Shown here: positions 27,944 through 54,118 of the stretch, in pieces
Position numbering within the stretch: position 1 is the first letter of the stretch
Layout: the number at the start of each line of letters is the position of its first letter
DNA from: Pseudovirgaria hyperparasitica
Taxonomy: Eukaryota
Direction: 5' to 3' (one strand)
Length of the DNA stretch: 63,724 nucleotides
NCBI GenBank assembly: GCA_010093815.1
Contig: ML996565.1
Notes under the pieces: model-generated
The model's database searches: none
What the model saw: only the letters and a program-made list of their open reading frames with translations
What the model was told of the DNA's origin: nothing
Made by a program: the position numbers and the translations under genes

Positions 27944-30249
27944 ATATACGTGTACCGGCTACTAAGTTTTCTTATATAACTATAGATACAAGGATACGGT
28001 TTAGCATGGTTTAAACTAGCGACCTTTAACTAAAATTAGCATCCGCTACACGCTAGTTAGTATTAACTATCGCGCGGTAAGCTAATATCTAATACCTTAG
28101 GGGTATAGTATATACGTTAACTTAAGTACCGCGGGCTATTATCGAGTTAAAAGTCCATTTCTAGATGCCTAGTTAATAGAGCCTATAGACAGACGCTAAG
28201 GAATCTCCCTAGAATAGCTTAAGCGCTATATTTTACATAGAATCTAAAAACTAAGTCTATGCGGATCTACCAAGACGAAGAAAATAGTAAATAGTTAATA
28301 TTTATACTATAAATAAGACACGCTAAGATAAATGTATATCTACTCTAGATCCTATAACAAAGGAGTAGTAGCCTACGATTAATTATCTCTAAGTATACTT
28401 ACTACTCGAGGAGTATTTAGATTATAGCTTCCAAACCCTATTAATATTTATTCTCCTAAGGAGCAAAGCTTAAGAGTAAGGAATTATATATAGTTAACTA
28501 CGCTCGAGGTAGTAGGTATTTATAAGAGCTAGAGAGAGAACATCGATAATCACCGTACTTATATTATAAGTAGCGAGATATCCGTTTATTAGCGTAGTTT
28601 AGATTCTAGAGCTAATTAACGGTAGTAATACTAAGTTACCCGTACCGTATCTAAACCTACTTAAGCTAGCTAGCGAGAGAAATAATAGGAGGGGGCAACT
28701 ACTAGACGTCTACATGTTACGTTAGACTTGTTAGTAGAGAGTAAGTATATCCACGCCCCCCTTACATTATACGAATAGTATAGAGGTGGTAGTAACCGGC
28801 GGATAGAGACTCTAGGGAGCTAGGTTAGAATTTTAACGCCATCTACTTTACTAACGGCATTGTTAACCATGTCTAACACGTATAAGTCTTAGGGCATTTT
28901 CAAATTCCTATACCGAAGGTAGCCGGTACTACGTCCTAGAAGGTCTCGAATATTAAGAAATATAAAGGATTCTAACCCATAAGAAAATTCTCGAGTAAAC
29001 CTATCCCTTGGCCGTACTAGAGCATTATTTAGTTATTTATATCTACTATTATCTAAAGTCTTATACCGCCGCATATCGAGGTTGAACCTTATAAGATACT
29101 ATGTTTAACCATGGTATAGATATAATAGCTTGTATACTTTAGTTAAGCGACTACATCTATTTCCCGTTTATACTCCTTATGAAAAGTAGAGCTCTATTAG
29201 CGGCCTAAGGATCCTAAATAAAGTATATAAACTTCCAACTAATCGCCATTATAAAAGATATTTATCTAGTAGTATAGGCTATCTAGAGTCGATTTACCGC
29301 CTTAATATGATTCTCGATTAATAACCCATTACGGACCTCGAGGTATACTAGCGATTATAGGAAAATAAAGGTCGTAGATAGCCCCCTAATCTTACCATAC
29401 TATATCTTTATAACTATACTTAGAACCTTTGTAATATATTATTATAATCTTAGCGTATATAGTAGTACTCTCTTCCTAGAAGTAAGGGTATAGTTCTATA
29501 ACGCCATGTATAACGTTTTACTATAGCGCCGGCCTATCTATATATTAGCTAGAATATTCGATAGGATTTCCGTTTAGGCTTACGCTACTATTTTTTAATC
29601 TACTAACAATTAGGAGCCGTTCTTTCGATATACAAAAGAACGTTACACGGGCCTAGGTAGTAACCATATACAACTCTTAGTAGAAAAACTAGATAGTCGA
29701 AAGATACCATAAGGTAGAGTCGAAAGGCAGCCCTTCCCATGCCTATATCCGAATAATTTTTATATATTAAGAAATCGCATGGTTAAAAGTTATATCTAGC
29801 TAACTTATAATTATTATTTTCACGGAGGGGGTAGCGAAGAATATACATGAAAACTACGTATTTTTCGTGATTTTTACTTTAATTTTCCTAACCGTGCGCG
29901 ATCGGTACCTAGATATACTATACACCGACCTACGTATACGTCTAAGGACCTTAGTAATCCTTATAGAATCGCGTACTCTAAGATACCTCTAGAATCGCCG
30001 ATTCTAATCTATTCTACTACTTACGAACTTTATAAGCTATAGCACCCCCCTTAGTACCGCTTCCTAATATAGATAGTATACGTTAAGTATAGGATATTAT
30101 ATTTAAACTTTTCTCTATCGGCGGGAGCGATAGAGCTTAAGCCGCCTTCTTCCGACCGTTATCGTTTCCTAGCCCGCTACTATTTATCGTACGATTACTA
30201 GAGGTAGCGGCTCGTTAGCTAAACGAGTAATAGATTCTAGCCTATTTAT

Positions 30250-31400
30250 ACGTTACTAATATAAATAATAACTCGCCTAATAACGATAAAGAAGACGATT
30301 TCGTTCCTAATACATGCCTACCGCCTCCGATATCTCCTCTACCCTCTTAATAATCTTATATAACTTCTAGTACCACGGTAGCTCTTCGTATAGTACTAGC
30401 GTAACTAGAGATAATAGCCTATAATATTAATTAAGAGCGAGAAGAGGACGACGAAGAAGAGCGTTAGTCTATATATCCCCCTAGAAAGCGGCGCCGTAAC
30501 GATGTATCTAACTAGAATAAATAGTTAACTACGAGAACTCTACTAACAACTATAAGAGTAAGTAATAAAATCCGGGCTAAGTTAAGAGTAAAGTATAAGG
30601 CTATACTTAGGGAGGTTATGGAGCTATTTACTAACCCCGATAGCCCGTCGTTACGGAACGAACATAAAGTATAGCTCCGTATAAATATAAGTTATCTTCG
30701 TTAGATAGATATATTATAATACTTCCCTAAAGATATAAATATAGTTAGATAACTCCTTAATCGCGTATTAGAGATCGGTTTACCGTTAACGCTACTTTAC
30801 TTTAGATTACTACTATAAGAATAGTAAGACGGTAAGACGGTAGACATAGCGCCTTATAGCCTTAATCCCCTATAGATTATTATTAGAGATACGACGTTAA
30901 CTAGGGAACGCTTAGTATATATATTTATAGACTAGGCTAGTATACTCTACTTTAAGATCGTTAAGCTAGTATATATATCGCGTCTTATTAGGATTAGACG
31001 TCGCCTAGTACTCGCGGATATATATAAAGCTATAAACGCTACTAAGGAGGCACTGAAAATAGACCGCATATTCACCCTTAGTACTAGGTAAGGCATCTAG
31101 TTAATTATAAAGGCTCGTCTATATATCTATATTAATTAACTTATAGGAGATTATACGCCAAGTCTAGAATAACCGTAGAACCTAGATATTAATATATATA
31201 CATAGTAAGGGGAGGCCTTTAAGCGGATAAGATAGTGGAAATAAATAAATAATTAGTTAAGTTATAGCGCGTACTAGGCGTTAATCCGTAAGAGGTTTGG
31301 CGACGGGTTATTTATTCTACTACCACCTGAAATTACGGACTCTTTCTTCTAGAAGATAAGGGTTAGTATACTAGAGGACTTCCTAGGCCTTATAGACTAA
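30250..31400 (+). pseudogene. RIP-degenerate gene of unknown function
   Basis: Coding-like frame with an acidic patch and an NLS-like EREEDDEEER..PPRKRRR (~30440-30500), plus a probable intron ~31088-31147. Ends are approximate. Confidence 0.4.
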
Positions 31401-31859
31401 TATTATCCATGGCTTAGACGACTTTATTATGGTGTTAAGCTATATTTATATTAGATTTTAAATGGAGACATTATGCTACCTAGGTAGTTCCTAATTAAGA
31501 GAATAACCTCGGAAAATATTACGAATATAGCGCTAGAGTAGTTTATAAATCTAATTAACCTATAAGACTATAGCCTAGGGCTAAGTACGCCATAGGACAT
31601 GCGTACTATAGATAATAATAAGGTAGATTAGAGAATGAAATATACTAATTTAGTAGCGACTATACTAATAGTAGAACACCTTAGCTAAAGATCGGGGCTA
31701 GTAGTAGCTATTAATTTTCTACGGTACGGCCGTTAAAAACTAAAGGACCTAAAAACTCCTTACTCTAGAGCCGTCTAGAATCGCCGTTTCTACACCTATC
31801 TATAGGAATATAATTATATATATTATAGTCTACTCCCGACGCTAACCTACTAATACTAT

Positions 31860-34800
31860 ATAAATATATATAGATATCCGTAGATTTACTACTAGTCGTC
31901 GACCTTAATACCGGAGTAATTATCTATTAAGATTATAAGCGCGCTATTCTTCTATCCGCGCTAGACCGCCACCTCCTTTAAGAATACTAAGGAATAAGAC
32001 TAAAGTATTATAAGATTATTAAAAGCTATATTTACTTACTTAGTTATACCGCTACTATAATCGACGACCTTTAAATACCCGCTACCCTATCACGGCCTAT
32101 AAGGTATATTCCGGTTAAGAGAGGGTTCTAATATATTATTAAGAACTACGGATTAGTTCTTAGCCTTTTAAAGAATCTTAAATCATATATTAAAAATAAA
32201 TATATGGCGTTCTTTAATGGGCGTAGGGGGGCTCTACCTAGAGCGGACGATAAGACACGTGGATATAGAGATAATATACTATACTAATGCCTATAGAATA
32301 TAGGCCGGTTAAACCGCCTTATCCCGATTATAACACGTACTACTATATATACTCGTATACTAATTAATACTATACTCGATTAGCTCTAGTTAAATTAGTA
32401 GAACGTCCTTAGAGATAAAGATCGTATAGTATAAACCGGCGCTATTAACGAAGTTAATCCATAGCTAGAACGTATAAAATTTATTAACTACTTCTAAGGC
32501 ATGGATATCCTCGCACTTACTAATATTCTAGAGATACCTACTAAAGGGCCGCTAAAGATAGTATCGTCTAGTCTAAGAGTTCTATTCTACTAAGCCTATA
32601 AGATAGTAGGTACTTATGATAGACTACTATGCCTAGAAGTAGCGCGTTCTATAATAGAGCCCGGGCTATAGCGACCTCTCGCACGTTATCGGAACTAGAA
32701 AATATTCCGTGATTACTCGAAGCATCTTTAGCGTCTTATTATTAGGGCTATCTAAGCGTACTAGAATCCCTACTACCTCCCGGCTTTAGTCTTTAACGCT
32801 AAGACTAAGGCGTGTATTACTCGGCTTCTAGACTATATTACTACGGAATAGCTATCCGGCGAGAGTAATAGTAGCTCCGACTCTAAACCCGAGATAAGCG
32901 TGACTAACGACTATCGTAGAGTAGAAGGTAATCTTAGCGAGTAGGATCTAGAAACACGTCGGGCAAAACTATACGAGGTATTTAGTATCTAAACCCGCCC
33001 TCTTTCTCGCATCGCCTACCTTTATATATAGCTTATTATTATATTACTATAATAGACGCTATATATATACTTATTCGAGGCCGTACTAGTCCTATTATCT
33101 AGTCTACTATATATAGATTAAAACGGGGGCTTCCTTTTACCATAGAACTATACGTCTACTCTATTAGTACTTATTAAGTTCTCCCGCCTTATTATCCTTA
33201 AGTAGGCCATCTAGAAAGTCTTCTATAAGTAAGCGGGTAGTACTATAGATGTTCTCGGATATCTCTTACCATTTATTAACTAGTATCTCCTCCGTAGTAG
33301 TCGTAGTATAGTTAGATAGTAGATATAACTTAGAGCTTACGGTCTTAAAATCGTAGGTAACATAGCTATAGACGTAAAGATATAGTGGGTTAATAATATA
33401 CTTACGTATAATGTATATACAATTCTAATAAATACATTTAGAGGGATAGTCTCTAGCTTAATAAATCGAATAGCGCGAATATTATATACTAATATTCTTC
33501 TACTATCTTCTATAGAGGGAGTACTAGTAATCCTATAGTAGTTACTTATAGATAATACGGCTAATAACATAATCGGGTATAGCTTCCTTTAGTTAGCGTG
33601 CCTCTAGAAGTAGTTCTTATAGTTTAGAAGGCGAGTTAAAAAGGACTAGAATATATAGTTAGCGTTCTTTACTAGAGGAGAGTTAGATATATAAAAAGCA
33701 TAAGACTAGCTCGAATAGATTCGAGTCTTTCTTAGTTAGCCACTTATCCTTATCTATATAATAGCTAGATAGCCTACACGTGGACTAGAAATCCTAAGTA
33801 TACGGTACTATAATACGCGATAGGGTAATATACGTAATATTATTCTTTATAGTAATAAGCTTTATATTATAATAAAGTACTATAAAGGGTATATACGTAA
33901 AGGAGATATCCGCCTAATTCTTCGATATCTACCGCTAGTTATATATAATATTCTAATATAGTATCTTTAGTTAGTCATCCCGTGGAAGAAACAACTCGAG
34001 AGATTCATGGATCTAATATAGATAGTCGTCCCTATATATATATGGCTATTGCCGTACTAGACTAGCGAGTATATAAGCCATGCAATAAGAGAATAGATAT
34101 ATCTTAGTATAGAAGTAGTTAACGTAGGTATCGTAGACTATTATTAAGTTGCGATTATAATTATAAAGCGTAAGCTTTAGAAGTACGAGATTAACTATAT
34201 AGACGAGGCCGATAAGAATAGTCTATAGAATAAGGACTAGAATCCGGGTACCCGAGATAATAGTCTAACCGCTATCCTTAATAAGTAAGCTAGTTATAGT
34301 ATAAAGATTATCTAGATCGCGTATAGTCGTAATATAAGTAGCCCGTTTAGTATGGTAAAGACGGTAATAGAGAGGTACTTCTAGGTTAGTCGCGTATAGT
34401 AGTACGAGATTAGGGTGCCTATATTTAATAAGATTACGCCTAGCTAGACGTGAATTTTATAAGTACGGGCTTACCGCTAGGCTATACTCTAGAAGAAGGA
34501 CCCGTATAAGGCTATTAAGGTTATACTCCGTAACGAAAACGCTAGAATATAACTCTAATAAGAAAAGGTATTTACCGGGCTAGTCGAAGACTATAGTCTA
34601 ATACTAGTTATATAGCCGACTATCTTAGATAAAAGTCTACCTTTTATATTAGCTACGTTAATAGTACTAGATAGAGTAATACTAGTTATTATCCCGCTAA
34701 AGGCCCTTCGAGATAACCTTATCTACCGTTATTATAATAGTAGTATTACTATAGAAGTATTTAACCCTACGCACCCCCCTTACGGAACGTCTATTATTAT

Positions 34801-37110
34801 TATTATACCCGAGTCTATAAAAGGCGAACCGTTTATATAGTTTATAAACTATATAAATAGCCTAGGTGTTAGGCACGTGCCTACTAGTTAATTATACATG
34901 TATATAGTAGTCGTATATAAGTAGTGTGCTCCACCCTTAAAGTAGTAGCTTTAAGATTCGGTCCTTTTGGTATAGTTGGTTGGTGCGTGGAGCCCGCCTC
35001 CTTATATAATCTTAAAGCTACTACGGGGTCACGGGTTCAACTCTCGGTCTAGTTAACCGTTATTGAATTTCGCACGATTCCGTTTAGCTTACCACGTTAC
35101 GTGTACTTTATGCATGTAACGGATAACATGGTAGTAACGTTACTACGGTAAGTTAGCGTGTCTAGTACTAGAGACGGCATTATAAGTATTGGTTATGTGT
35201 ACACATCGTTTATACTAGGCCCGTTACGGCTAGTTTAGTTCATCTTTTATAAGGTAGCATGCCCACGACGCGTAAGGACACGCGCCTTCGAAAAGGGGAG
35301 ATATTATTAGGCACGTGCCTGCTAGTTAATTATACATGTATATAGTAGTCGTATATAAGTAGTGTACTCCACCCTTGAAGTAGTAGCTTCAAGATTCGGT
35401 CCTTTTAGTATAGTTGGTTAGTACGTGGAGCCCGCCTCCTTATACTAGGACTACTCGACCGTGTAATTATTAATAAGTACTACTATATTATTAATAACGA
35501 CTAGTTCCGGCCGGCCTTTCGCGATATCTAAATAATAGTCGACCTAGAGGTATAGATTATACTTCTAAGTATAACCCTACTACCCGATAATAAAGTAGGG
35601 CTATAGAAAGCTATACGTATAAACGCTAGAGATGTATTTATCTACCGCGAAGCTATAACTCGGCCTAATATTACGTATATACTTAGGAGCCTATCTAAGA
35701 AGGCTCGAGGTACCTATAGTTAAGCGGAATACGTACGATGTGTTAGATAGGGTATTACCGGTAGATATCTCGTCTTTACGCCTATAGTTATATAAGCTAT
35801 TAGCCTCGTAGGGGAGCTTGGTTACGATATATACTATTAAGAGAGTATAGCTAAGGAGTAGGTCCTTAACGGATTTATCGCCGAAGAAGAAGGTATTATA
35901 GTTACTATAAACGCTCTTAGCCTAGGTATTAACCTAGCTACCATTCGCGTCGTGATACACTTAGGCGCTCCTTCTTTATTCCTAGACTATATATAAGAAA
36001 GCGGCTAGGCCGGTCGCGACCATCTAACGAGAAGCCTCGCTATCTTCGTAAAGATAGGAGAAGCTACTACTAAGGACGCGATAATACTTACTTATATAAA
36101 CTAGATAGGGTGTCGTAGGGTGTTCCTAGACGAGTATCTTAATAGGTCGTTTAGTAGAAAGAGCTGTAATAGGGTTAAAGAGAAGTGCGATATATACGAT
36201 CCTACCCTATTAATATTCCTACTATATTTAGAGACCCTCTAGGAGGATCTAGAATTGGCGATTCTAGACCTTTCTAGTAGCTCGCCCGTGGGTTCCTTAA
36301 ATAGTTAACCTAACCTACCCTAGACTAATTAACCGTCGCGCTAGCCGCCTTATATATAGAATAAGATAAAACGAGTACGTGTATATAGTAATAGTATAGG
36401 CGAGGTAGGAAGACTAGTAAAAGGGCGGGTATTAGAACTTCCTAGTGCGCGTCCGGACGAAGATTACGTAGGTAAGAATACTTATAATTAACGAATGTTT
36501 ATATAATAATAGTCCATGAAACTAGTAGTATAAGAACGTCGTCTATAAAATAGATAATATATAAGTCTCGTCTAGTTATTATCCGAGTAGAGATAATAGT
36601 AGGCTAGTTATTATAATATATATGGTACTAATAGTAGAGTCTATACTACGTACTACTTAGATAATAGACGACTTATAGACATGGTTAAGCGTGTACTAGC
36701 CGACTAAATGCGAAAGAGTAATATCATGCCTAAACACGTGTACTACTTTACCTATTACTAGCTATAAATTCTATGTCTATAGTAGGAGCCTAGACCGGAG
36801 GGATAACTAGGGTTCCGTCGGCTCCCGGGAAATATTAAGTATATATAGAAATTTAGTTTATATCGAGCTCTTAGTATAATAGTAGTCTATCTATCTAGAC
36901 GATAGGCTACCCGGTTAGAAGGGTTTAGAATTTCGAAAACGGGCTAACTACTAATAGTAATAAGAGAAGGTGCATGGGACTCTAGTAAATTAGCCCGTTA
37001 GCTATAGTGTAAGCGGCGAGAGGGGGCGTATAAAATTACGAATACTATTCTAGAATTTAATTAGAGTACTCTACTAATTATAGATGTTAGTCGATAGGGT
37101 CGGTAGAATT
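31860..37110 (+). pseudogene. DUF3505(OrsD-like)-RecQ-type helicase (telomere-linked-helicase-like), interrupted by TRIM 1
   Basis: De-RIP'd motifs: VIIC.DCKRAI..LDRHL..EH, EVNP[W]LER, RGLEILSIRY.N..RNI, KY[H]KG, [Q]A[G][H]S, VIIPLKAL, LDRVII[DECH], NAL[G]LGI[D]..IRVVIH and DYI[Q]ESG[R]AGRD (~35985-36020), plus a Cys-rich C-terminus. Confidence 0.8.
34867..35444 (+). mobile_element. TRIM (non-autonomous mini LTR element) copy 1, 578 bp
   Basis: 140-bp LTRs at 34867-35006 and 35305-35444, TSD CTAGG (34862-34866 / 35445-35449), PPT GAAAAGGGGAGA and no ORF. Confidence 0.93.
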
Positions 37111-37669
37111 TATAGTTATTATAGTTTAAGTCTAGAAGTATATAAAGTCTATAGAGTATCTTAATGCCCATAGGTAATGTCTGTAAGTTAGTACTCTTAA
37201 TCTATATTACTCTATATTAAATAGAATATAAAGAGAGAGACGTGAAAAGGATTCTTCTAGTAATGTAGTTACGTATTTAGTATAAGAGTATAAGAACTAG
37301 AATCTACGACCTTAACTATAGGGCACCCTATAAATAGCGATTTCTAGAGTAGGGGCTGGAATTTCTAATAAAACCGATAGGTTAATTTACTTTACTTATA
37401 ACACGTTATAACGTAACGTAAGGAGGTTATATAACAACACGTAATAAGACCTAAAATATATATTTATATATATTATTTCCGTTAACTCTCTCTATCTCTT
37501 CTATATCATTTTACTATTTTCTTACGTAATCTTATTTTTTCGACATATATATATTTAACCCACCGATCGCCGTTTACAGACCCTTCTAGAGATTATAGCT
37601 CCTTTTCTTCTAGTTAATATTCAAGTATAAGAGGAAGAAGATAATGATTTTCTTAATCCGTTTTTAGAT

Positions 37670-40600
37670 ATAGCTACTAAAGAGATTCGCGAAACTAGAG
37701 TAGCGTTATAGAAGAAATATACTACCTTATCCGCTCTTATCGTAGGTAGTAGCTTAATAGACTACGATTCTAAAGCTATAGAGCGATTTCTTAAGGTCGC
37801 TACTATAGAGAAGGAAGTAGGCGAAGTAGAAAAAGGCGCATCTATTAAGTTAAAGCCGGGAAAAGAGGCTAGATAGGAGTATAAAAAGGAACCTAGGCTG
37901 GAAAAGAACCGTCGCCTTAGTAAGATTACCTCTAACCTTGGAATTAGCGTGGTTAAAGTAGCTATTTTATTCTAGGATTCTAAAGTTAACGCCTTACTTA
38001 ATAAATACTATATAGAGTTCTTTAACCCGCGGATTCTAGAAGGTTCGCATCCGTTTAGCTAGTTTACTTTAGCTATAGAACTTATTAAAGAAGACCGTAC
38101 CTATTACCTTATAGTAATAGCCGCTAGTCGTAGTAAATAGGAAGATTACTAGTAGTACGCGTCTCTTATTCTCTGGATAGATCTTAAGCTATCTTCTAAT
38201 TATATAAATCCTCTTTCGCGAATATATATATTAGAGAATAATAAATATCTTGTATTTAATAATATACTTAAATACCGACGCCATGCCCGTAACCAAGGGT
38301 AAGAATACAAGGATAACTTTCGTATAAAAATTATCTATGCTAACGCGAAGTAGATGTCTATAATACCTTAGAAAGTTTCTACTAACTAGGTTCCCCCTAC
38401 TTATCTACTAATCACTCTATAGGCCCGTCTAGAATCGACGATTATAGGCCCTTCTAAGAAAAAAGCTAGAAGGCGTTTAGATTAATACTAAGCTACCGAT
38501 AGTAACTCTACTACTAACCGGAATAGAGAACTTAGTAAGAATACTAGCGATACTATAGATTAGGACCCGATGGAAGATATCTAAGCGATAGATCCAAACT
38601 CGCTCCTTAACGCACCCATGCTAGACGTACTAGCTATACTAGATACTACTATAAAAGAAGGACCTATAGCTACCCTAGTAAAACTAAAACGTTCCTTAAA
38701 GCCTATAAAGGCACTAAGAAAAAAATTACCCGAGTACTATACTAAGACGTGGACTAATATATAGAAACGCGGTCTAAATCCATTGGGAGTATTAATAGAT
38801 ATCTATAACAATCTAGAATTTATAGTCGAAGATAAGGGTATTAATATAGACGATCGGCGTATATTTACTAGATTATATCTTAAGAGTCTCCCCTCCGAAG
38901 AAGAGCTCTAGGCCACGCTTATAGTAACTTATAAGGATTATAACGTCATTAATCCGGATTATCTTAAACTAGGAACGTGTCTATACTACTCTTATCTTAC
39001 TATTAAGAATCTTATAAAGGGCTTAAGCGGTACTTAAAAGATCTCCGAGATTAAAACTAACGAGGTTATTTAAGTAAATAATAATAAGATAGTAATTACC
39101 GTACGTATTAATACGGATCTTAGTAATATAGTACTAATTATAGATTAGTTAAAGTCGGGTAGCGAGAAGAGAAGTAAACTATAGGATTAGTTAAATAACT
39201 AGAGTAATAACGGCGCCGCCTAACTATAAGACTATATTATAGCCGCGGTGGGTCTCCGAGTTACTAGTACCTAAAAACCTTAGATTCTTAATATAAATTC
39301 TAGCGTTACTCTATATTAGTAGTAACTTATAGAAGCTTAGTAGCTCCGAAAGAGTATAGATAGTTTAGTTTCACGGGGTGTAGTATTAGTAGATGGTATT
39401 GGACTAGGTAAAATATTTATACTTTTAGCGCACTAGCTGCATGTAAGTTTCTTCCCCTAGTGGCCTCTAGAATCGCCGATTCTAGACGCGCCTATATATA
39501 TCTAACTAAAATATAGTTAATTAACGAGCGTATCGCTAATCGCGAGAAGGGTATCCTAGTATCTCCTCCGAAGCCTACCCTACTATTAGTATCTATAAAT
39601 CTTCTTATCTAAACCGCCGAGTAGATTACGGACTTTTCCTTACTCTTCTATATTATTACTAGTTACGGCGATAGTAGGGTCGGGAAATCAGCTACTAGTA
39701 CTATATATTTAGTAGGTATCTTAATATAGAAGAGTTAGTACTTTAGACCGGAGAAGATTAATACCCGTACTATTATCTTAATATTCTATGTAACGTTTAA
39801 CGCCTATTATAGCCTTACTAGATAGAGGGAGAAAATACGAGGGTACGCGGAGTTCTAGAATATTAAATCTAGAAATTAGGACGCTATTATATTAGTAGAA
39901 ACGAAATATATAGAGAAGTAGCATTTTCTATATAATGCCCCTTAGAACCTTACTTAGTACTTTAACTATACGGTAGCTAACGAAGTACACGGCTTCCGGA
40001 ATATTAACTCTATGACTAACCGGTCCATCTACGAGCTTAATATTAAATACTATGTTCTTATAACTAGTACTCCCGTCTATAACTTCGCTAGTAATATATA
40101 GGGTCTTCTTAAAGTTATATAATAGAGCGCATCCCTCGACGATTATTTTAACGGTATTTCCGGTATATAGCCGCCATTTAAGGCGAAGTCTAACCTATAT
40201 AAGTTGCTATTAATGATAGTAAGACTATATCCGGACGTTTTATAGGAAAAACTAGATCGCGTCCTAGGTATATATCTAACTTCTCCGGCCTTTAAGTACT
40301 AGTACCTAGGTTCCGGCCGTAATAATTCTAAGCCGCTATTAGAGCTAGTATAAGGCTAGTACTTAAGTATAATATACGGAGTATTTATACTTCGCTATAT
40401 AAACGACTTACGGTATAGCGATAATAATACTACTTTAATCCGTAACTATATTCCGCGGGCCGAAAGGGTATAGATTAAAGTAGCGTATCTACTAGAGGTA
40501 TAGGCTAAGTATAATAAGATTAGTAAGGAGACCTAAAAGAAGCTTATTTAGCCGAATCCTTACCGACCCTTAGAATTAAGTCTAAACTCCCGTATATAGT

Positions 40601-42081: not shown

Positions 42082-42772
42082 CTATCTTCTAGAAGGGATT
42101 GGAATCGGCGTTTCTAGTCGCGTCTATAGTTAGTACTTTTCTTTAACAGCGTGTATTTATATTCTACTAGTTATTTTATTATATTTATAGCTACTAGTAT
42201 CTTTCCTTTAATAGTCTATATAAGGATAGTCGTCCTTATAGCTTATTATATCTCCTTACTTTTATAATTAACGCCTAGTTAAATATTATTATAATTTCTA
42301 ATACTGTCTTACACGCTCTGTTAAGTATTCCTATACTCGTTTTCTATACCTTTAAAACGTGGTTCTACTCTATACTAGAGGCGTCTAGAAACGTCGAGCG
42401 CCGATAGCCTTTTACTCCTAGTAACATCTTAGTATACGTAACTATAGGCTTCGAACTAGTATTATATTATTCCGACTTACGCAATATAAGGGAGAGTTCA
42501 TTTTATTTACTTAGTATTACTTTACTTTACTACTTATCTATATTATATCCGGTTTATTAACCTCTATTTACTTTTATAATATTACTATCTAAACGAGACT
42601 AGCTTAGTATTTGCATAAAGGTATATAAATATATACTACCTTATAATTTCCTCTCTTCTATATTAACTTACTTACTCTTGTATACGTTAATAAGTCTTAT
42701 AATTCGTTCATTTATCTTATTAGTAATTACAATTTATAGACGCCTCTAAATAGATTATATAGATTTAATAAA

Positions 42773-45700
42773 ATGGTAGGCGATTAGAGCCTTCTAACTA
42801 AGCTAAGTAAAGGAAAATGGAAGGCGGTATAATTAGCTCCGCCACCCGTAGAAGATACTAGACCTTTAGAACCGGCTAAAACTTCTAGATCTATACGCTA
42901 TACCTAATAGATACTTTAAGACCTAAATAATCTAGTAGGGAATGATTGTTTCTATTAATCTTATAAAAAACTAATACCGTTACGTATGAATAGCGTAAAG
43001 TTCATGGTTAGTAATATTATATAGATACTAGAGAAGGACGTCTATTTGGTAAACGCTACGTAGAGGTAATTAGATACTAAGCGTTTTAGTAGTATTAACG
43101 TAGTTATCCGTAAAGGAGCCGGTCTAGAACTCGTGGCCGCCCTTACGGATTATAAGATTTTAGAATCCGAGGAAATTCTAGTAATGGAGCCATATAATCT
43201 TAATGTAAAAATTATTATATACGTGGCTATACTAATATATATAAAGACGAAGTTAGATATAAAAAAACGTCGTAACGTTCTAAGAGATTTATATAAAAGC
43301 ATCGTTAAAACTACGGTTAATTATTAGAACCTAGATATTAGTAGCGTCGCTCGGATTCTTTATTCTATTCTTAGAATATCGAAGTATAGATAGGCTATAG
43401 ACGCTAGAGCCTATTCTACCCTTCTCGGTATACGAATGGCTTTCAAGGACTCTAATAATAATAAAATACTATTTAATATCTTACTCGTCGTGCCATTAGC
43501 GGAGGATATACTTAATATTATACCTATTATCTAGTGGGTTTCCAATTCTACGAATTACTATTATCTACTAATATTCTTTAGTATTATATTCCCGTCGATT
43601 AAAACGCGCGCCATTAAGTTTCTAGGTATATTAAATCCCGGCTTTAGTAATCCTTAGGATTAGCGATTCCAATACCCGCGCATTTATTATTATATATACT
43701 CTATAGTCTTTCCCTATAACCGTCTAGGATCGACGATTCTAGACCTCTCTTAAGATATACATGTTCCCTATAACCGTCTATAATTAACGATTCTAGGCCC
43801 TTCTTAAGATATATATATTCTATACTAACCGTCTACCGTAGAACTACCTATCTAATATATACCGATAACACCTCGTGTATATATAGCTCGCGCCGCTAGT
43901 ATTAAGTTAGCTCTATCTTAGGAAGTTTATACTAACCGTATACGTTTCGTTAAGAATATAATTAGGGATAACGTTATATATAGTCGAGCCGTAGTAGCCC
44001 GTTCTCTAATAACTAATAAACTATCCCCCGCGAAGAAGAAGAAGAAGGGTTCTAAGACTAAAAATACCGCCGATTCTATTATAAGTAAGACTAGTAAAAC
44101 GTCTAAGACCGCACTACTACTTAAGAATAGTATAGTAGTAAAAGAGCCGACTATAGAAACGCTATACCCTACTACGGAACTATCTTTGGTAAAGGAACCC
44201 GAAGATAATACTAATAATTTAGATTCTATATCTCCATCTATAGATAGCGAACTTTCTAATAATCTAGACTCTAAACCTAATACCTCTAACTTACTACTAC
44301 CCCGAATACCGTTAAAATCCAAAGCCCGGAAAGTAGTTAGAACGCTATTAAAAAGATTAAAGGTAAACTAAACTAACACCGTAAAGCCGACTAGTACTAC
44401 TCTAGTTATAGCCGTAGCTATAAAAAAGGCTAAAGCGCTAAAGCGTAAAAAAACGATAGTAACTTTATAATCTCTAACGACCTAAAGCTTCCTAGTAGGT
44501 GTCTACGACCTTAGATAATAGCTTTCTTTATTAATCGACTAGTAATAGGTAAACCTATTATCTACCGCTTAGTTAGATACTACTACGTTACGTAGTTCTA
44601 GTTAGCTATAGCGGAGAGAATTTCGCGTCTTAAGAATTAAGGCAAGCTCTATACTAGATTTACTTTTATTGTGAAGATTATATATATACTAGGTGGCGCT
44701 AGAGCGGGCGGCTATGGACCTAATACCTACATCGATCTATACTTCTATAGCTCTAAGGAATACTACCATTTAATTCTACTCTATAAGCGGCTTAAGAGAC
44801 TTACGTAGAGCCCTAAAATTCTCGTAGAGGGTCTTCGTCTTCGGCTCGCCTAGCCTATATATAAAGAATCTAGATTCGAGACTCCTACTAATTATTAGGA
44901 GCGATAACTCGCCGTACTTCGCCAACTTAGGGAGTTGCTTAGTCGTCTAATTTTCTATGATTATTAGTCTAATATTAGCTTTATATATTAGCTTGCTATA
45001 TAGTAAGTTTGGGATAAGCTAAAGTATAACGATCCTAATCTTAACCCGTCTAAGGAAGTTAATAAGAGTAATAAAGAGAATTTATTACGTTATATAAAGC
45101 CGCTAGCCGATACTACTAAAAAGTCTTCTATAGCCGAAGTAACTATAAGGAAGAAGCGTATAGCGTCGTATAGCGATTTAAGTAAGGCCGTTAAGCGCGT
45201 TAAACTTAGTAACGAGATACTAGAGAAGGCACTAGAATCGGCGATTATAGACGCCTCTAAGGTTTTAGATGATATGCCCGATAATACTATACGGATAAAC
45301 CCCCTAGACCCCCTCGTAGACTCTAGTACTATTTCTAAGAAACGTATGGAATCGTCGATTCTAGGACCTTCTACGGACCTTAACCCTCCTCCTATTTTTC
45401 CTTTAATTACGCTAACTATACCGACTATTACTACCACGTTATTATATATATCTCTTAAGGGTACCGATACTATCGTATCGGATAGTAAGGGTAATTCTAG
45501 GTCGCGGATCTTAGATCTATCTAAATAGCCAACGATCGATATATAGCCTAGCATGCCTAATAGTAGCATTATTATTAACTAAGACCGGCCACTTACTACC
45601 TAGGTATAGTATCTCGCTAATTATGGCCCTTTTAAGGATAAGCACGTAGTTTAAGAACTTTACTATAATATAGCGTTCTCTAGATCTAACCTAGATTTCC

Positions 45701-45852
45701 TACCGCCCTTATTAGTAGATTCGACCGACCCTAATAATATTAATATAGACTTAAGTAGTTAAAGGGTTAGGTTTTTCTTAAGTATAGACATGCGTATAAG
45801 ATTTAAGTAGTTATTAGTAAATTATAATCTAGTACTAGGGTAGGTCTATAAC
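42773..45852 (+). pseudogene. Large RIP-degenerate gene of unknown function, 3' end split by element C (continues ~53693-53750)
   Basis: Long coding-like frames (ORF-track fragments 43133, 44186, 45274) and Lys-rich NLS-like SPAKKKKKGSK. No domain recognised. Confidence 0.4.
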
Positions 45853-46080
45853 TATTAGAACTTAGTCTTAGATAGAACCTAACCTACACGTTCCTTAGCT
45901 AATAGGGTTAGAAGGTAACGTAAAGGGCGGTAAACAGTCACGTGCTAGATAGATCGGCGTCCCTTTATATATATACTCTTAGATTCCTACTAAAAGGGTT
46001 CGGTAGTAATTCGTTCTATAATAGAATATACCCTATTATTCTATCTAACTATACTACTATCTAATAACCCTATTCTTATA
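45853..46080 (+). repeat. 5' LTR of element C
   Basis: Direct repeat of 53460-53687. Confidence 0.95.
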
Positions 46081-46273
46081 TTCGAATTACTCCCTATATA
46101 GTACTATAGTTAAGATAGTCTAACTAGAACCGAGAAGGTCGACACGATCTACTATAGGGATAAGTAATACTATATTAAATAATAGAGATTCTCTATAATT
46201 AGCATTAATCCCGGCCATTTCTAACCGAGAAGTAGAAATATTAGACCGAATCGCGGAGCTTTTAGACGAAGAA

Positions 46274-49200
46274 ATGGTAGATACGCCGAGTAACTTCTAA
46301 TAACATAAAGCCGGATAACGAGTCGTAGCGGAGCCACGTGAGGTATTATAATAAACCATCGCCGAACTTTAGGAATACGTCGCGAATTAGGCTTAATAGA
46401 TTTAAACCCTTAAAGAATAGATAGAACGCGCGAAACTCCTCGCAAAGAGACGAGAACTTAAGGAGTCTCTTAAAGAACTACGCCGAACGATAGTAGGTAG
46501 ACGACTTCCTATACTAATTTAGGCGGAATTAGTTTACCTACTATTAGAGTTATGATAATCTACTATATACCCGGCCGCTTCGTTACCGATTTACCCTACT
46601 CCTTCCCTAGATATACTAAAACCTAAAGACCCGACTATATTTATAGAGAAGAACTAAAAGGAGTAGAAAGACTAGAAGAGAGACTACGAAAAGTACTTCC
46701 TCGATAACCCTCTACTCTTTTCTACTAAAGTATAATATATTTCGTTCGGAGAACGATACCTAGGCTTATAATCCCGCGATTAATAGGATAGATAGAAGGA
46801 AGTACAGCCACTATCTACGACAACCTAGAAATATTTAGCTATATTTATACTAAATACCCTCGGAACGGATGGAGAACGTGAAAGAAAGGCACTATCTAAG
46901 TTAAGAAGCGTAGCATAACGACCGAACTAGACACCTACTTAACTACTATAATACCTCTAAAACCTATAGAATAATATCCCTACGCTATAGAAAAATATTC
47001 GTATATTCTAGTTTCGCGAAGTACTACTTCCGTTAATCCGCGAAAGACTAGAAATAGTATTATTAAGTTTTAACTATCTATATAAATTAGAGGAGAAAGC
47101 TAATAAATACTACCGCATCCTTAAGGAACGCGGCTCTCTAGGTAAAACCGACGAACCCTATACGGGTTAGAAACGAGGTCAATCGAATACGTTCGATTAA
47201 GAGTAACCTTACCACAATTAGCGCTAGAAGAGCGTAAATCGGGGTAGAAACGCGTTAAGAGGATACTAAAATAATTAAGGCGGTACTTCTTAACACGGAA
47301 AAGGATAAGATATAGGCTTAAATATAACGCCTATCGTAAAATAGTAGGATTATAGCGTACTTTGTTACTATAAGTATAGAGAAATAGGATATATTTCGCC
47401 TAACTATAAGAATCCGAAAAAAGAATAGGCTAGTACACGAGATCTAACCGCGTTCTTAGCTAAATTATATATACTTAGAAGGAGCCGTAGCGCCTTCCGG
47501 CGAGTAAAGACCTAATATTACTAAAAGTATCGTTACCTATAGTAAATAGTAATAAAACTATATAGGCCCTCGTGGATACTAGTATAGAAGATAACTATAT
47601 TTCGTCGATTCTTATAAAGGAGTATAGATTATCGTACGATCTTAGTAAAGTTAGCTAAACTATCGTAGTTAGTAGATATAAAGTTAGAACTTTAGGTAAA
47701 GCTATAACGAATTACGAAGTTCATAACTCGAAGATAATAAAATAGTAGATGTCTAATAAATTTATCGTGGCTAATATTAGCTAATAGAATATAATTCTAG
47801 GGATACCTTAGCTTAGACGCCTAAACTCTATCCTTGATTTTTAGAAGGAGACATTAACGTTCTAACGATACCGTAGTAAATTATACTAGTAAGTCGTAAC
47901 TATTAGTAAGGAGGCATGGAACCTTACCATGCGGACCCGATTATCGCTACCCTATCTTATATTCTTATTGATCGTTAATAAAGATAAGGACGATAGTAAT
48001 AATTAGGGCGAAGACACGCTACCCGACGTATATTCGTAGTATATAGATATATTTTTAGTAGGAGATACGTTACTTCTCCCTAATCACGGGCTATATAAGC
48101 TAAAGACTAAGCTTAAAGAGGGAGTAGACGTCCCTTATAGTCTACTTTATCTACTTTTAAGACTAGAACTTGAAGTTCTTCGTAAATATATTAAAGAATA
48201 CCTTAAAAGAGGCTAGATACGTCGTAGTACGTTATTGGCCGGCGCATCTATTCTCTTCGTAAAGAAGAAAGACGGAAGTTTACGTCTATACGTCGACTAT
48301 TAGGTACTAAATACGGTAACTAAGAAGAATCGTCACCTATTACCGCTAGTTAGTAAATCTTTAGACTAATTAATAAAGGTAAAGTACTTTATAAAGCTAG
48401 ATTTACGAGATATATATTACCGGCTTTAAATTCGTTGCGGAGATAAGTAGAAAACCGCATTTCGGACTAGATATAGTCATTTTAAGTATACTATTATACT
48501 ATTCGGGCTAATAAATACGCTAGGAGCGTTCTAAGGATATATTAATACTATACTCGTAGGATTACTTAACGTGATTTACGTAGTTTATCTCGATAATATA
48601 CTAATTTACTCCGATAGTATGTAGAATTATAAAGAATACGTGAAATTAGTACTAAATCGTCTAAGGTAGTATAAACTCTACGTAAAATTATCTAAATATA
48701 AGTTTCACTAATAAGAAGTTAGGTTTCTCGGCTTTATTATAATATATGGCGGCCTAAAAATAGAGCCGGAGCGTATAAAGACCATTATAGAATGGCTAGA
48801 ACCTACTACTATACGTTAAATTAGAACATTTATAGGTTTTGTAAACTATTATCGTAAATTCATTATAGGCTTCTTACGAATTACGGCGCCGCTTAATAAA
48901 CTCATAGAGAATAGCGGTAAAATCTCTATAGGTAGGTAAGCATAGCGTAAAGCTAAGTCGGTCGAGATATAGTTAACGCTGGAAGCGCGAGATACGTTTC
49001 AATCATTAAAGAATTACTTTATAACTACGCCGATTCTTAGGTATTTCGATCCTAAGAAGTATATTTAGGTTAAAACTAACGCGTTAGAATTCGTAATTAC
49101 TAGAATCATTAGTTAACCGTATAAAGATGCGAAAGATAAGGTGTAATAGTACCCGGTCGCTTTCTTTTCCTATAAAATGGCGGATATAGAGACGCGTTAT

Positions 49201-51790
49201 AACACGCACGACTAGAAACTACTTATAATTATTAAGAGTTTTAAGTAATAGCGATATTATTTAGAAGGCTCTATATATTAGATCGAATTATTATTAGATT
49301 ACGTAAATCTATATTACTTTATATCGACCAAGGTCCTTAATCGCCGATAAGTACGTTAGGCTAAGTAGATATTAATATTTAACTTTAAAATCTTATATAA
49401 AGCTAGAAGAGAGAATAAAGCTAATCCTCTATCGCGGCGTAAAGATTATAAGAAATCGTTATAGAATGACGTAGATAGTTAGTATAAGTTAGACTATACT
49501 ATACTTTAGATACTATAAGACTAGTTATCTAATAGAATACTAGAAGCTAGGACACTTTCGGCGATTCTCCGCGGGAATTAGAGCGGGTATTAAGTAATCT
49601 AAATAAACGTCTAAGAAACTAAGAAAACCCTCAAAGACTTAATTAAATCTACCTAGAATTCCGATATATTAGTAAAGAAAGTTATAAGTATAAAAGGAAG
49701 CGCTATAGATCCGCCGTGGTTATTAAGGTAGAAACGATAATCCAACGCGATTGTTAGGCACATGCCTACTAGTTAATTATATATATATATAGTAGTCGTA
49801 TATAAGTAGTGTACTCTACCCTTGAAGTAGTAGCTTTAAGATTCGGTCCTTTAGGTATAGTTGGTTAGTGCGTAGAGCCCGCCTCCTTATATAATCTTAA
49901 AGCTACTATAGGGTCACGGGTTTAACTCTCGGTCTAGTTAACCGTTATTAAATTTCGTACGATTCCGTTTAGCTTACCACGTTACGTATACTTTATATAC
50001 GTGATAGATAACATGGTAGTAACGTTATTACGGTAAGTTAGCGTGTCTAGTACTAGAGGCGGCATTACAAGTATTAGTTATGTGTGTACATCGTTTATAC
50101 TAGGCCTATTACGGCTAGTTTAGTTCATCTTTCGTAAGGTAGTATACCCACGACGCGTAAGGACACGCGCCTTTAAAAAGGGGAGATATTATTAGGTACG
50201 TGCCTACTAGTTAATTATACATGTATGTAGTAGTTATATATAAGTAGTGTACTCCACCCTTAAAGTAGTAGCTTTAAGATTCGGTCCTTTTAGTATAGTT
50301 GGTTAGTGCGTGGAGCCCGCCTCCTTATAGTAATCTACTTCTAAGACCGACTCTACGTGCCGGAAGGCGGCTTATAAATTAATATTTTAAGGGAATAGTA
50401 CGATTACGCGTTAGTAGGGCACTTTAGCGTTATAAGGACGGTCGATTTAATCCGAAGGACGTACGACTAGCCGGGTCTTTATAAATATATAAAAGACTAC
50501 GTAAAAACGTGTAACGTTTGCTAGTATACGAAAGTATATAGATACTTACTATATGGCGAATTAAGGCCATTACCTATGCTAAAGGAGGCATGGAAGGAAT
50601 TATTAATGGATTTTATTATAGATCTGCCCCTAAGTAAGTATTCTAGGTATATTTATAATAGTTTACTTATAGTTCTAGATAGATTTATAAAGATATTATA
50701 CTACATCCCTATAAGGAAGATAATCTAAGCACCGGATCTTATAGATATACTACTCCGTGATATAGTCCGGCTCTATAGTATACCGAACGGTATAGTTTTG
50801 GATAGAGGTCCGTAGATAACGTCTAAATTTTAGAAGAATTTCTACTATACGCTAGGAATTAAGCGGAAACTTAGTACTACGTTCCATCTATAAATAGATA
50901 GATAGACGGAGCGGTAGAATTAGATAGTCGAGGCGTATTTACGTGTATATTATAACTATAAGTAGAATAACTAGATAAGGTTAGTCTATATCGTGGAATT
51001 TGCGTATAATAATAGCCGATATATATTAACCCACGTAAGTCTATTCGAAGTAAACTTCGGTCGGAACCATAATATATAGTTCTTAGGGACCTAGTTTAAA
51101 GTAGAACGACCCAACGTTAAAGTAATAGAAATTACTATAGAACTATTCTAAACGTAAAGAAGCATTATAAAGTTACTATAAGATACTACGAATTATAGTA
51201 AATCGCACTATAACAAGGGTAGAAAACCTATAATCTTTAATATTAGGGATAAAGTTTTACTAAATAGTAAGAATATTTATAGTATTAGGCTAAAGAAGAA
51301 GCTTAACTATATAATAATAGATCTATATAAGATTACTCGTGTAATTAATGACTAGGTGTACGAGTTATAACTCCCTCCTACGTTAAAGATATATAATATA
51401 TTCTATATTACGCTTCTCGAGCCATTTTATACCTTATTATTACTAGATTATTCTAAATAGATACTATATAAAGTAGTTATATAAGAAGGTATAGATATCT
51501 ACGAAGTTAAGTAGATACTTAGCTAGTAACATACCGAAGATAGCACGTAGCTATATAAAATTCGTTAGAAAGGATATAATTCTAATAAAGATACTTAGGA
51601 ATCTATAATAAACATTAGTAAAGTAGCGATATTAGTATATAAGTAGCGATTAGCAAAGGAAGCCGCGGAATCATAGAGAATTATACTAAAGTACAGCAAT
51701 TCAACGTTTTTTAGTATAGTTCGGCGCCAAGGACGGCCGCCTAAAAGGAAGAAGGTAAAAGAGATATAGATCTTTAAAACATTCTAAGGA
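46274..51790 (+). pseudogene. gag-pol of element C (interrupted by TRIM 2)
   Basis: CCHC remnant ~47365-47410, protease ALVDT[S/G], RT, RNase H, integrase and chromodomain. Ends are approximate. Confidence 0.85.
49752..50329 (+). mobile_element. TRIM copy 2, 578 bp, inserted in pol of element C
   Basis: Same length as copy 1, differing almost only by transitions. TSD GCGAT/GTAAT differs by two RIP-type transitions. Confidence 0.93.
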
Positions 51791-51834
51791 ATTAAGGAAC
51801 TTCCTTAGAAAGTTCGAACTTAGAACTTTAAAAA

Positions 51835-51929
51835 NNNNNNNNNNNNNNNNNNNNNNNNNNNNNNNNNNNNNNNNNNNNNNNNNNNNNNNNNNNNNNNNNN
51901 NNNNNNNNNNNNNNNNNNNNNNNNNNNNN
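51835..51929. other. Assembly gap (95 N)
   Basis: N run. Confidence 1.
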
Positions 51930-52019
51930 CGAAAAACTAAAAACGCTAGATAAAAGAGATATATTAGTACTAATTAGTATAGATCTAAACCGATTAAGTC
52001 GGAGTAGAAGTAGAAGTAC

Positions 52020-52888
52020 TAATTACCGCGATAGTTATATCTAATTCCTTCCGCTAGTTCTTATTTAGTATAGTATAGAGCTTTATAATATAAGTCTCTA
52101 GCCTTTCGTTCCGACGCTATAAATTCTATATAGCGCGCCTTATAGCTATAAACTCCTCTATAGAAACCTATAGAGCGGTAGGACCCGGGACGGAGAGGGA
52201 CGGACCGGCGTAGGCACGCTAAGAATTATATAAATTAGCGAAAAGATTTAATAATCGGTATAGAACTATATACCTTTAGTATAGAAACTTCTAGATTAGA
52301 GCTATCTTCCCTAAATTTATAGCTCTTTAACACGCGCGAGGAAGGAACCTTAGCCTTTTTACTAGAACCTTTTCTAGAAATTTTAATATCACTAGTATAT
52401 AGAAAGAAGTCCGAAGTAGTAGAGATTTTAGTACTATTATAGAGATTAATATATATTAGTAAGAATCTATAACGATTTAAGAAAAACGATATTATCTAGT
52501 AATTATAGTAATAATAGCTATAGTAGATTCTAATAAATTCTTATAGATCTTATTAGAATCGTACTCCTAGACGTAACCCTTACCTTAGGTATATAGCTCG
52601 TAGAAAGCCTTCTCTAAGGCGTTACGATCGGTAGTACCACGCTCCTTATTAGTAGAGGTTACTAGAGGCCTAGTAGTAATCTATACTAATATAAGTAAAT
52701 CTACGTAAAGTTCTTCGAACTTACTTAAATATCTATAAGTAATAACGCTTCTTAGTTATATAAGTACCGTATATTATAGATTTAGTACCGCCGTAAGTAA
52801 TATACGACGGAAAGTAATAACTATAATAATATATAGCTAGATTATTAGAGCCCGGCCTAGGTCGGGGTAGATCGATAGCTTTTGACAT
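52020..52888 (-). pseudogene. Putative antisense accessory gene of element C
   Basis: ATG at 52888 (MSKAIDLPRPRPG..) is followed by a Tyr-rich stretch compatible with RIP'd Cys codons, then a GTAAGT donor. The end is approximate. Confidence 0.4.
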
Positions 52889-53459
52889 GTCGGTAATGTA
52901 TACGAGATAGGGATTATTCGAAGGCGCCTATTTCCACGCTAATTACTTTAGAGCGTTAAGATTTCGGGAAACTATATTATAATTATTATTAATTTATACG
53001 GACCATTATAAATTATATTATTACTAGCTAAGGACGGTATAAAAATTAGTAAATTACGTAAATCGTACTAAATTATAGTAAATCTATATAAATCTATATC
53101 TATAAGGATCGGGTAATATATCTAATAATCTAAAAAACTCTATAAAGAGTTAAGAAGTTTTTTAAAGAAAGGAATATTTCTAAGAAAAGATTTTAATATA
53201 GGTAGCACCCGGGCTTACCTAATTATATCACGTGATATACTAGGCCTAATTAGGTAATCTCACCTATATAAGAAGTTAAGATGGATAAAATCTAGTTTAT
53301 TAGGAAAATACTTATATAAATCTTAGATCGGTAAATATTAGTAAGTATCTAAGACAAAGCGTAGAGAACGACTAAGGTCTTATAAGACTTAGAATAGGGA
53401 TATAGGGATAGGTAACGATCTAGGTTACTAAGGGCAGCTTCCTAGAGGGAAGGGATAAT

Positions 53460-53687
53460 TATTAGGACTTAGCCTTAGGTAGGACCCGACCTATATATAC
53501 CTTAGCTAATAGGGTTAGGAGGTAACGTGAAGGGCGGTAAATAGTTACGTGCTAGATAGATCGGCGTCCCTTTATATATATACTCTTGGATTCCTACCGA
53601 AAGGGTTCGGTAGTAATTCATTCTATAATAGAATACACCCTATTGTTCTATCTAACTATACTACTATCCAATAACCCTATTCTTACA
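53460..53687 (+). repeat. 3' LTR of element C
   Basis: Direct repeat of 45853-46080; ends TTACA, followed by TSD ATAAC. Confidence 0.95.
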
Positions 53688-54118
53688 ATAACTATAATAC
53701 TATAGCCGTAGACTAATAGCTAGACTATAATACTAAAAGAGTGGGTATTTAGCCGTCTTATTAATTCTTAGTTCTTTATATTTTTATACGTATCTATGAA
53801 CTTTATTACTTAATATAAATAAGTACCTAGAATCGCCGATTCTAGACGCTTCTATAACCTTTAAATACCCTAAGATTTAATATACTATAAACGCTACTCT
53901 TATAGGTCTGTACGTTAGCGTATATAGAACGGTAAACCTTCTAGATATATTATCTAGAATAGTATATAACGAACTATATAATAGTCTTAACTTTAGTAGT
54001 ATAGGGTTAAGCTATAAGCGGACCGCTTATAAGTAAGCGTTATCCGATCTATTTCTACTAGGCTTATAGGAAACTATTTCTTAATGCTAGGCTTCCCTAA
54101 CCACCTATCATAGTAATA

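Follow-up and report, generated by a model that had tools for sequence, protein, structure and literature searches.

The window analysed here is a stretch of 63,724 nucleotides from Pseudovirgaria hyperparasitica (assembly GCA_010093815.1, contig ML996565.1), in which the block 29955-53846 is a copy, inactivated by repeat-induced point mutation (RIP), of a multicopy repeat unit of ~15.5 kb. The unit carries pseudogenes of a RecQ-type helicase (ORF1, for open reading frame 1) and of a Snf2-family ATPase (gene 2), followed by a third, coding-like region, and it is interrupted by two retroelements, a terminal-repeat retrotransposon in miniature (TRIM 1) and a Ty3/gypsy element (element C) (Table 1). 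Removing these insertions (581 and 7,838 bp) from the 23,901 bp of 29950-53850 left 15,482 bp, in agreement with the ~15 kb given in the initial annotation. The heavy RIP reported there was also confirmed, with a composite RIP index of 1.0-1.8 and a GC content of 0.31-0.43 from ~6700 through the window end (GC 0.31-0.40 in 29950-53850), against an index of -0.5 to -0.65 and a GC content of 0.47-0.55 in the left flank, which holds ATG3 and a GH3 gene.

Table 1. Features of the repeat unit and of the retroelements inserted in it (window positions).
Feature	Positions	Strand, frame	Remarks
Left edge (provisional)	29955-30008	+	Leftmost palindrome pair: weak copy 29963-29981, good copy 29989-30007
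5' degraded stretch	30009-32974	+	No significant homology, no open stretch of at least 60 aa; palindrome 31775-31793
ORF1 middle domain, pseudogene	32975-34369	+, frame 2	HMM A1 465-934, E 3.2e-13
Putative tyrosine-recombinase-like core of ORF1	~33740-34345	+	Motifs 'PTRGLEILSIRYYN', 'KYYKGY', 'IAYSR'
ORF1 RecQ motifs I-Ia	34601-34852	+, frame 2	HMM A1 1075-1156, E 2.2e-6; PTILDKS at 34616
TRIM 1	34867-35447	+	576 bp, ~140-bp terminal direct repeats, plus second copy of 5-bp CTAGG duplication; splits helicase
ORF1 RecQ motifs II-VI and start of Zn/C-terminal region	35448-36194	+, frame 3	HMM A1 1161-1422, E 6.4e-27; FRP 35505, SGxAGRD 36000
SNF2 ORF exon 1	37400-39442	+, frame 2	Low stop density; motif I GIGLGK 39395; palindrome 38429
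Spliceosomal intron	39443-39516	+	74 nt, GTAAGT..CTAAC..AG, phase 0; perfect palindrome copy 39467-39485
SNF2 ORF exon 2	39517-42003	+, frame 1	Snf2 ATPase core and helicase-C lobe; 43-aa insertion around palindrome 41147
Third region, coding-like	42200-45528	+	Frame 3 42200-42800, frame 2 43070-44368, frame 1 44600-45525; no Pfam match
Ty3/gypsy element C	45848-53685	+	Long terminal repeats 45848-46078 and 53455-53685 (231 bp); reverse transcriptase, RNase H, integrase zinc domain and SH3_Tf2 matches
TRIM copy 2	49752-50332		In integrase region of element C; duplication GCGAT/GTAAT, differing by RIP-type transitions
Unit tail	53686-53846	+	Last palindrome 53827-53845; provisional right edge

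The RecQ part of ORF1 retrieved a single relative in the word-based protein search, P0001, a protein of 1582 aa with an OrsD/DUF3505 finger (4-115), a DEAD domain (1050-1185) and a Helicase_C domain (1241-1336). Searching with the middle part of P0001 yielded 40 proteins, mostly of ~1600 aa with OrsD, DEAD and Helicase_C domains and labelled RecQ by their sources, whose named members come from Hyaloscypha and Pseudogymnoascus. A profile hidden Markov model (HMM) of 23 family proteins, HMM A1, gave three collinear matches on the + strand that continue across TRIM 1, the best at E 6.4e-27, and the RecQ-like helicase of the initial annotation was recovered in this way. Pfam Helicase_C matched at ~35847-36018 below the cut-off (E 2.4e-4), and tblastn aligned P0001 residues 713-794 with the middle domain at 37% identity. 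Once TRIM 1 is removed, a frame discrepancy of 1 nt is left in the helicase, which we took as a pseudogene indel. For the relative P0025, the predicted model of the helicase part matched BLM, RECQL5 and WRN (E ~1e-20). On these sequence comparisons, ORF1 is classified as a member of the fungal telomere-linked helicase (TLH), or OrsD/DUF3505-RecQ, family. The N-terminus of the family (first 465 profile positions) was undetected upstream of 32975, where the best match of a sub-HMM had E=6 (32453-32593, same frame), and the sub-HMM of the far C-terminus gave nothing significant past 36075-36194. Since the N-terminal half is undetectable, the "unknown gene" annotated at 29950-33000 is most simply this degraded half of ORF1, and 30009-32974 is probably its promoter together with the N-terminal zinc-finger part.

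The predicted architecture of the OrsD/DUF3505-RecQ family places a domain with a tyrosine-recombinase fold between the OrsD/DUF3505 finger and the RecQ helicase. The structure was predicted for P0029, a member of 915 aa without the helicase, from 40 aligned sequences (mean pLDDT confidence 76, rising to 80-95 over residues 500-780). In an unfiltered structural search against 48,161 representative chains, the top 22 rows all belonged to the tyrosine recombinase/type IB topoisomerase superfamily, including Ndc10 (Z 10.2-5.3). The best match was archaeal Xer (Z 10.2, root-mean-square deviation 3.3, 167 residues aligned), followed by XerH (8.9), XerA (8.8), XerD (8.3 and 8.1), a staphylococcal integrase (8.0) and Cre (7.9), with topoisomerases IB, the Tn1549 integrase, Ndc10, Flp (5.7), SSV1 and lambda Int (5.5) in the lower rows. 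A second look again ranked ten tyrosine recombinases first (Z 9.3-6.6), the next unrelated row in the region having a Z of 3.9, and in Foldseek no rows other than Cre, Tre and XerH exceeded a probability of 0.15. The atlas search with the middle domain of P0001 returned unnamed fungal clusters and a weak bacterial integrase lead (0.79, 17% of one bacterial cluster).

Several residues of this domain are invariant in the 23 aligned proteins, namely R725 (in GLPLRGTE), R849, N889-H890, Y899 and R901 (P0001 numbering), and K761 is 90% conserved. The resulting order in the family is R..K..R..H-x8-Y, which is the tyrosine recombinase signature, and the H-to-Y spacing of 9 is the same as in lambda Int. 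The window copy keeps the R, K and Y positions, and its H-to-Y and R-to-Y changes are of RIP type. With a tyrosine-recombinase fold predicted in the ORF1 family, a recombinase candidate for the block exists. The absence of a reverse transcriptase, a DDE transposase and a DUF3435 captain, noted in the initial annotation, was confirmed: none had a Pfam match outside element C (six frames, E<=0.01), and for DUF3435 there was no match either in P0001 (E<=10) or in the six-frame translations of 6720-8431 and 27948-55472. A lack of any recombinase does not follow, since the ORF1 family carries this recombinase-fold domain. The literature searched, as far as its available text extends, gave no description of such a domain in telomere-linked helicases. 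In the same model, residues 16-174 (the OrsD/DUF3505 region) gave weak matches to the ORC-interaction domain of Sir1 (Z 5.3-5.7) and to small zinc fingers of viral proteins and of Kaiso (Z 4.2-5.3).

The second gene is, on sequence comparison, a pseudogene of a Snf2-family ATPase spanning ~37400-42000. A profile built from 11 distant homologues (HMM A3) matched the + strand at 39553-41478 in a single frame (E 7.9e-41), which bears out the SNF2 ATPase initially annotated in the block. Against PDB the same profile retrieved ISWI (1.6e-54) as well as Snf2, Fft3, Swr1, DDM1 and Rad5, with no subfamily favoured. Pfam SNF2-rel_dom stayed below the cut-off on gene 2 (E 4.3e-4), and no protein was retrieved when the SNF2 core was used in the word-based search. 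Among 1.84 billion representative sequences, phmmer with the read-through frame recovered 17 distant Snf2 proteins at 23-31% identity and P0002, a protein of 157 aa that is 72% identical. P0002 has D, G, H and W where the window has N, S, Y and stop, and its tblastn match extends to 42003; as these differences run in the direction of RIP, P0002 is a gene model from an orthologue or from a copy with fewer mutations. Ahead of motif I lie ~660 codons of low stop density with no known homologue.

The intron between the two exons accounts for the shift from frame 2 to frame 1 and restores continuity with the homologues. The several introns of the initial annotation are thereby reduced to one validated case, the generic intron pattern being no commoner on the + strand (3 against 5 on the - strand); another candidate, 40964-41060, was rejected as it contradicts the homology frame. 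The four co-oriented genes were similarly recovered in part: the RecQ and SNF2 genes were verified, both on the + strand, but 29950-32975 and 42200-45528 lack detectable homology. Open stretches of 85, 149 and 173 aa occur in this third region.

We confirmed that the block is multicopy. Unitigs from two runs (X1 and X2) of one sample were aligned to 35448-49751 at a likeness of at least 80%, the fraction of sampled words present being 0.64 and 0.59 in the two runs. The exact 342-nt unitig had a depth of 332 (X1) and 183 (X2), and from the RecQ C-terminus through SNF2 to the third region (35448-45464) the summed unitig depth was 1262-3350 (X1) and 599-1935 (X2), that is, 4-10 times the exact unitig in both runs. 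The X1 sums were 1779-2930 for the RecQ C-terminus, 1741-3350 for SNF2 and 1262-1845 for 43557-45464. Over element C, summed depth reached 166,000-401,000 across full bins. Two to six contigs were present at variable sites of the unit, and in X1 their differences from the window were nearly all transitions (414 A>G, 403 T>C, 134 C>T, 134 G>A; no transversion type occurred more than 3 times). Together, the depth sums, the multiple contigs and the near-pure transitions form the pattern of several independently RIP-mutated paralogues, and we place the unit at roughly 4-10 copies, a summed contig depth not being a true copy count. It is highly improbable that a single-copy cellular RecQ paralogue and a SNF2 gene were instead ruined by RIP leaking from adjacent retrotransposons: RIP-mutated long terminal repeat (LTR) elements do flank and interrupt the block, but the composite RIP index is uniform at 1.3-1.8 along the ~15 kb of the unit, several diverged unitigs per site occur at 4-10 times the single-copy depth, and P0002 derives from another copy or an orthologue.

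A metagenome scan with the ORF1 family alignment gave 53 related loci (L001-L053), with GC contents of 0.18-0.45 and in many cases an intact ORF of ~1600 aa. Eight of them end in (TTAGGG)n arrays located 0.35-7.3 kb downstream of the gene, which is oriented toward the array in all eight, and the telomere linkage attributed to DUF3505-RecQ genes thus applies to relatives of ORF1. Relatives with frames of 1600 codons remain intact at 18-34% GC (for example L002, GC 0.18, with a frame of 1613 codons), and the 10-kb flanks of such AT-rich relatives are nearly devoid of other long ORFs. In the window, genes lie only to the left of the block, everything from 6720 through the last base is repeat, and ORF1 points right, toward the repeat-only side, an orientation like that of telomere-linked helicases relative to their telomere. 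Given this orientation and the repeats reaching the window end, the block may lie in a former subtelomere that retrotransposons have enlarged, and the "interstitial" position initially assigned is unproven.

The palindrome TCTAGAATCGnCGATTCTAGA characterises the unit. It was found in 10 matches with at most 3 mismatches, against 0.02 expected, and a looser scan gave 12 good copies, at 29989, 31775, 36249, 38429, 39467, 41147, 42099, 43724, 43778, 45232, 45346 and 53827; there was no copy in the remaining ~48 kb of the window, and none was found in the 53 related loci. The first and last copies match the block coordinates of the initial annotation. Four copies fall in the third region (43724, 43778, 45232 and 45346), with that at 42099 just upstream; two are read in frame within the open stretch of 173 codons, one of the 12 lies in the validated intron, and one lies in the 43-aa insertion of the SNF2 core that is common to P0002. 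The core measures 19 nt (~40 nt with flanks), folds weakly as DNA and contains neither CA nor TG, so that RIP is unable to alter it. It may be a recombinase binding site, an insert similar to introners or miniature inverted-repeat transposable elements, or a regulatory hairpin. A palindrome of another sequence occurs in one related locus, L033, where 10 copies of a 9-7-9 arrangement (AGATACCTC, 7 nt, GAGGTATCT) are spread over 7007-9219, mostly ~142-144 nt apart with some wider gaps, directly downstream of a telomere-linked-type ORF; this is the layout of a recombinase core site.

The RecQ and SNF2 genes are co-oriented and 1.2 kb apart, and indirect evidence indicates that they form one unit: depth is similar over the two (see above), and the same private palindrome recurs in all three parts of the block (RecQ, SNF2 and third region). 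Position 37202, a candidate junction between a RecQ unit and a SNF2 unit, was rejected, the break there being a local divergence of 9-10 nt after which the sequences agree again. The competing view that two unrelated repeat families, a telomere-linked RecQ repeat (X26-like) and a SNF2 cluster repeat (X3/X3X3R8-like), happen to adjoin in an AT-rich repeat dump finds a precedent in Parastagonospora nodorum, where, according to the available text of PMC3017866, the subtelomeric RecQ repeat (X26) belongs to a different family from the SNF2 repeat (X3). The depth decrease from ~1700-3350 over RecQ and SNF2 to 1262-1845 over 43557-45464 also shows that copy number is not equal throughout. Furthermore, the RecQ-SNF2 linkage was not recovered elsewhere: SNF2 of the window type was present in none of the 53 related loci (E<=1e-5), including the 14 with at least 5 kb downstream. 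With no relative having a SNF2 neighbour, RecQ and SNF2 may be two juxtaposed repeats, although a linkage within the window's own lineage is compatible with this result because the relatives are distant. Considering the shared palindrome, the like depth, the continuity through 37202 and the close co-orientation, we regard the chance adjacency of two families as unlikely.

We then come to the possibility that the unit is an autonomous giant DNA transposon following a Crypton- or Starship-like logic, in which the 5' recombinase-RecQ protein would act as transposase, SNF2 and the third ORF would be accessory or cargo genes, the edge palindromes would be recombination sites, and insertion would have occurred interstitially downstream of GH3. 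The predicted recombinase fold with conserved catalytic-type residues agrees with this scenario, as does the position of ORF1 at the 5' end reading inward, which is where Starship captains sit and how they read. The unit is also multicopy and RIP-hit, its 12 palindromes are confined to it from 29989 to 53827, and a SNF2-bearing multigene repeat of ~23.5 kb dispersed over many scaffolds is known in P. nodorum (X3X3R8; PMC3017866, available text). On the other hand, no termini, terminal inverted repeats or target-site duplications were found for the unit in the window, a second full copy for defining its ends being lacking, and there was no match to DUF3435 or another transposase in Pfam. ORF1 has telomere-linked relatives in which SNF2 is lacking, the homology between copies ends raggedly, and 10 of the 12 palindromes are internal, so that active recombination sites would be expected to cause self-deletion. 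A leftward extension through 27949-29950 and 6720-8431, suggested initially, was not supported, as 6720-8431 and 27948-29950 gave no Pfam match and contain no copy of the unit-specific palindrome. There was no Pfam match in 53686-55472 either. Overall, we consider a giant transposon of this kind possible but doubtful.

We favour, with modest confidence, the reading of the block as a RIP-killed TLH-type repeat unit that is multicopy, includes a SNF2 ATPase and received two retroelements later. The unit would have multiplied as DNA among chromosome ends, as TLH blocks do, most likely by recombination promoted by its own recombinase-helicase protein or, alternatively, by ordinary homologous recombination; RIP would have inactivated the copies after duplication, and the TRIM and the gypsy element would have inserted subsequently. 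Mobility of the unit is plausible but unproven, with a candidate enzyme now at hand.

Besides the lack of a SNF2 neighbour in the relatives, several points weigh against this reading. Neither a TTAGGG array nor a RIP-degenerate version of one is present in the window. ORF1 is distant from its family (23-37% identity, read through RIP-damaged sequence), and neither Pfam nor a sub-HMM recovered from the window the OrsD/DUF3505 finger that all 23 aligned relatives have, although RIP damage may hide it. As to the recombinase domain, the His of HxxR is replaced in the family (Gln846/Tyr848), Pfam integrase models matched none of the 23 members at E<=5 (among the best 25 of 40 families), and no Foldseek match by itself reached E<=0.001, the best row being Cre (E 0.39, probability 0.66). 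The two runs represent one sample, which may be the source sample of the window assembly. Finally, within one group of metagenome loci the blocks shared between copies (4.2-6.9 kb, 90-97% identity) end at different points, which resembles subtelomeric mosaicism rather than a discrete element.

A bolder and rather improbable proposal is that the TLHs of filamentous fungi are active tyrosine recombinase-helicase fusions, and that TLH blocks are, or descend from, Crypton-like elements homing to chromosome ends. These would include the present unit, with its SNF2 gene and lox-like palindromes (inverted arms, 5-7-nt spacer), and what the window preserves would be one stranded copy, inactivated by RIP, of a larger variant with cargo.

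The unit can be compared with several known systems. Cryptons and Starships have a tyrosine-recombinase-fold protein at one end of repeated DNA, as predicted here, and Starships also carry cargo genes; unlike them, the window unit has no DUF3435 match, its putative recombinase domain is fused to RecQ, it has no defined ends or target site, and its relatives are telomeric. The Y' elements of yeast, long suspected of a mobile-element origin, are helicase-encoding subtelomeric repeats as well, but their helicase (Y'-Help1) would belong to a different lineage from ORF1 and, to our knowledge, has no known recombinase domain. Introner-like elements are near-identical sequences that form whole introns in several genes; of the 12 palindrome copies, one lies in the validated intron and others are in frame or in an insertion.

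The closest parallels are the TLH repeats of fungi (Magnaporthe oryzae TLH1, Zymoseptoria tritici, Leptosphaeria maculans, Aspergillus fumigatus), which likewise encode a RecQ-type helicase in a long ORF, the relatives of ORF1 carrying the OrsD/DUF3505 finger; both these repeats and the window unit are multicopy and very AT-rich or RIP-affected. According to the available text of the respective papers, AT-rich, RIP-affected, multicopy subtelomeric RecQ genes occur in Z. tritici (13 copies, GC 34.7%; PMC4522978, which also mentions Y' elements), in L. maculans, where a "RecQ telomere-linked helicase" is classed among the telomeric repeats (PMC3105345), and in P. nodorum (PMC3017866). The window unit differs from TLH repeats in having no telomere array in the window and SNF2 directly downstream. 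The repeat X3X3R8 of P. nodorum, of which there are more than 25 near-full copies, contains unknown ORFs besides genes for Rad5/SNF2-like helicases (Hane and Oliver, 2010; PMC3017866, available text) and, compared by description, resembles the window unit as a multigene RIP-affected repeat with a SNF2-type gene. It carries, however, a Rad6-like E2 enzyme, whereas the window unit had no UQ_con match in Pfam, and in that species SNF2 and RecQ lie in separate families, unlike here.

TLH repeats themselves are already known; what is new here is the recombinase-fold domain predicted in the ORF1 family and the SNF2-linked TLH-type unit, a variant with a private palindrome strewn through it. Telomere-linked helicase genes are standard at fungal chromosome ends, and recombination between ends has so far been the only explanation for their spread. 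The recombinase-fold domain, conserved and equipped with residues of catalytic type, would give a concrete, testable mechanism for this spread, and it may form a bridge between subtelomeric helicase repeats and Cryptons or Starships. For annotation, "unknown" RIP-degraded AT-rich blocks can conceal multigene repeats that become nameable through profiles of distant intact relatives.

The nested elements were found by self-comparison of the window and by Pfam searches on stop-read-through frames. The two TRIM copies are 92% identical, and since TRIM inserted in both the RecQ helicase and the gypsy element, it was active later than both. Element C contains a run of N (51835-51929), and no target duplication was identified at its ends. 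On the left, the flank encodes on the + strand ATG3 (Autophagy_act_C, 3-1001) and the GH3 beta-glucosidase (3870-6691), and it is followed by a large LTR retrotransposon at 8432-27947, within which a second LTR element is nested (15539-26984). To the right of the unit, in RIP-mutated DNA, two tandem copies of a 316-bp repeat (90% matches) lie at 54119-54743, and minisatellite-like repeats of 23-26 nt follow. A further copy of the outer LTR type, 75-81% identical, occupies the right window end (55471-63354), where a run of N (63355-63364) breaks it.

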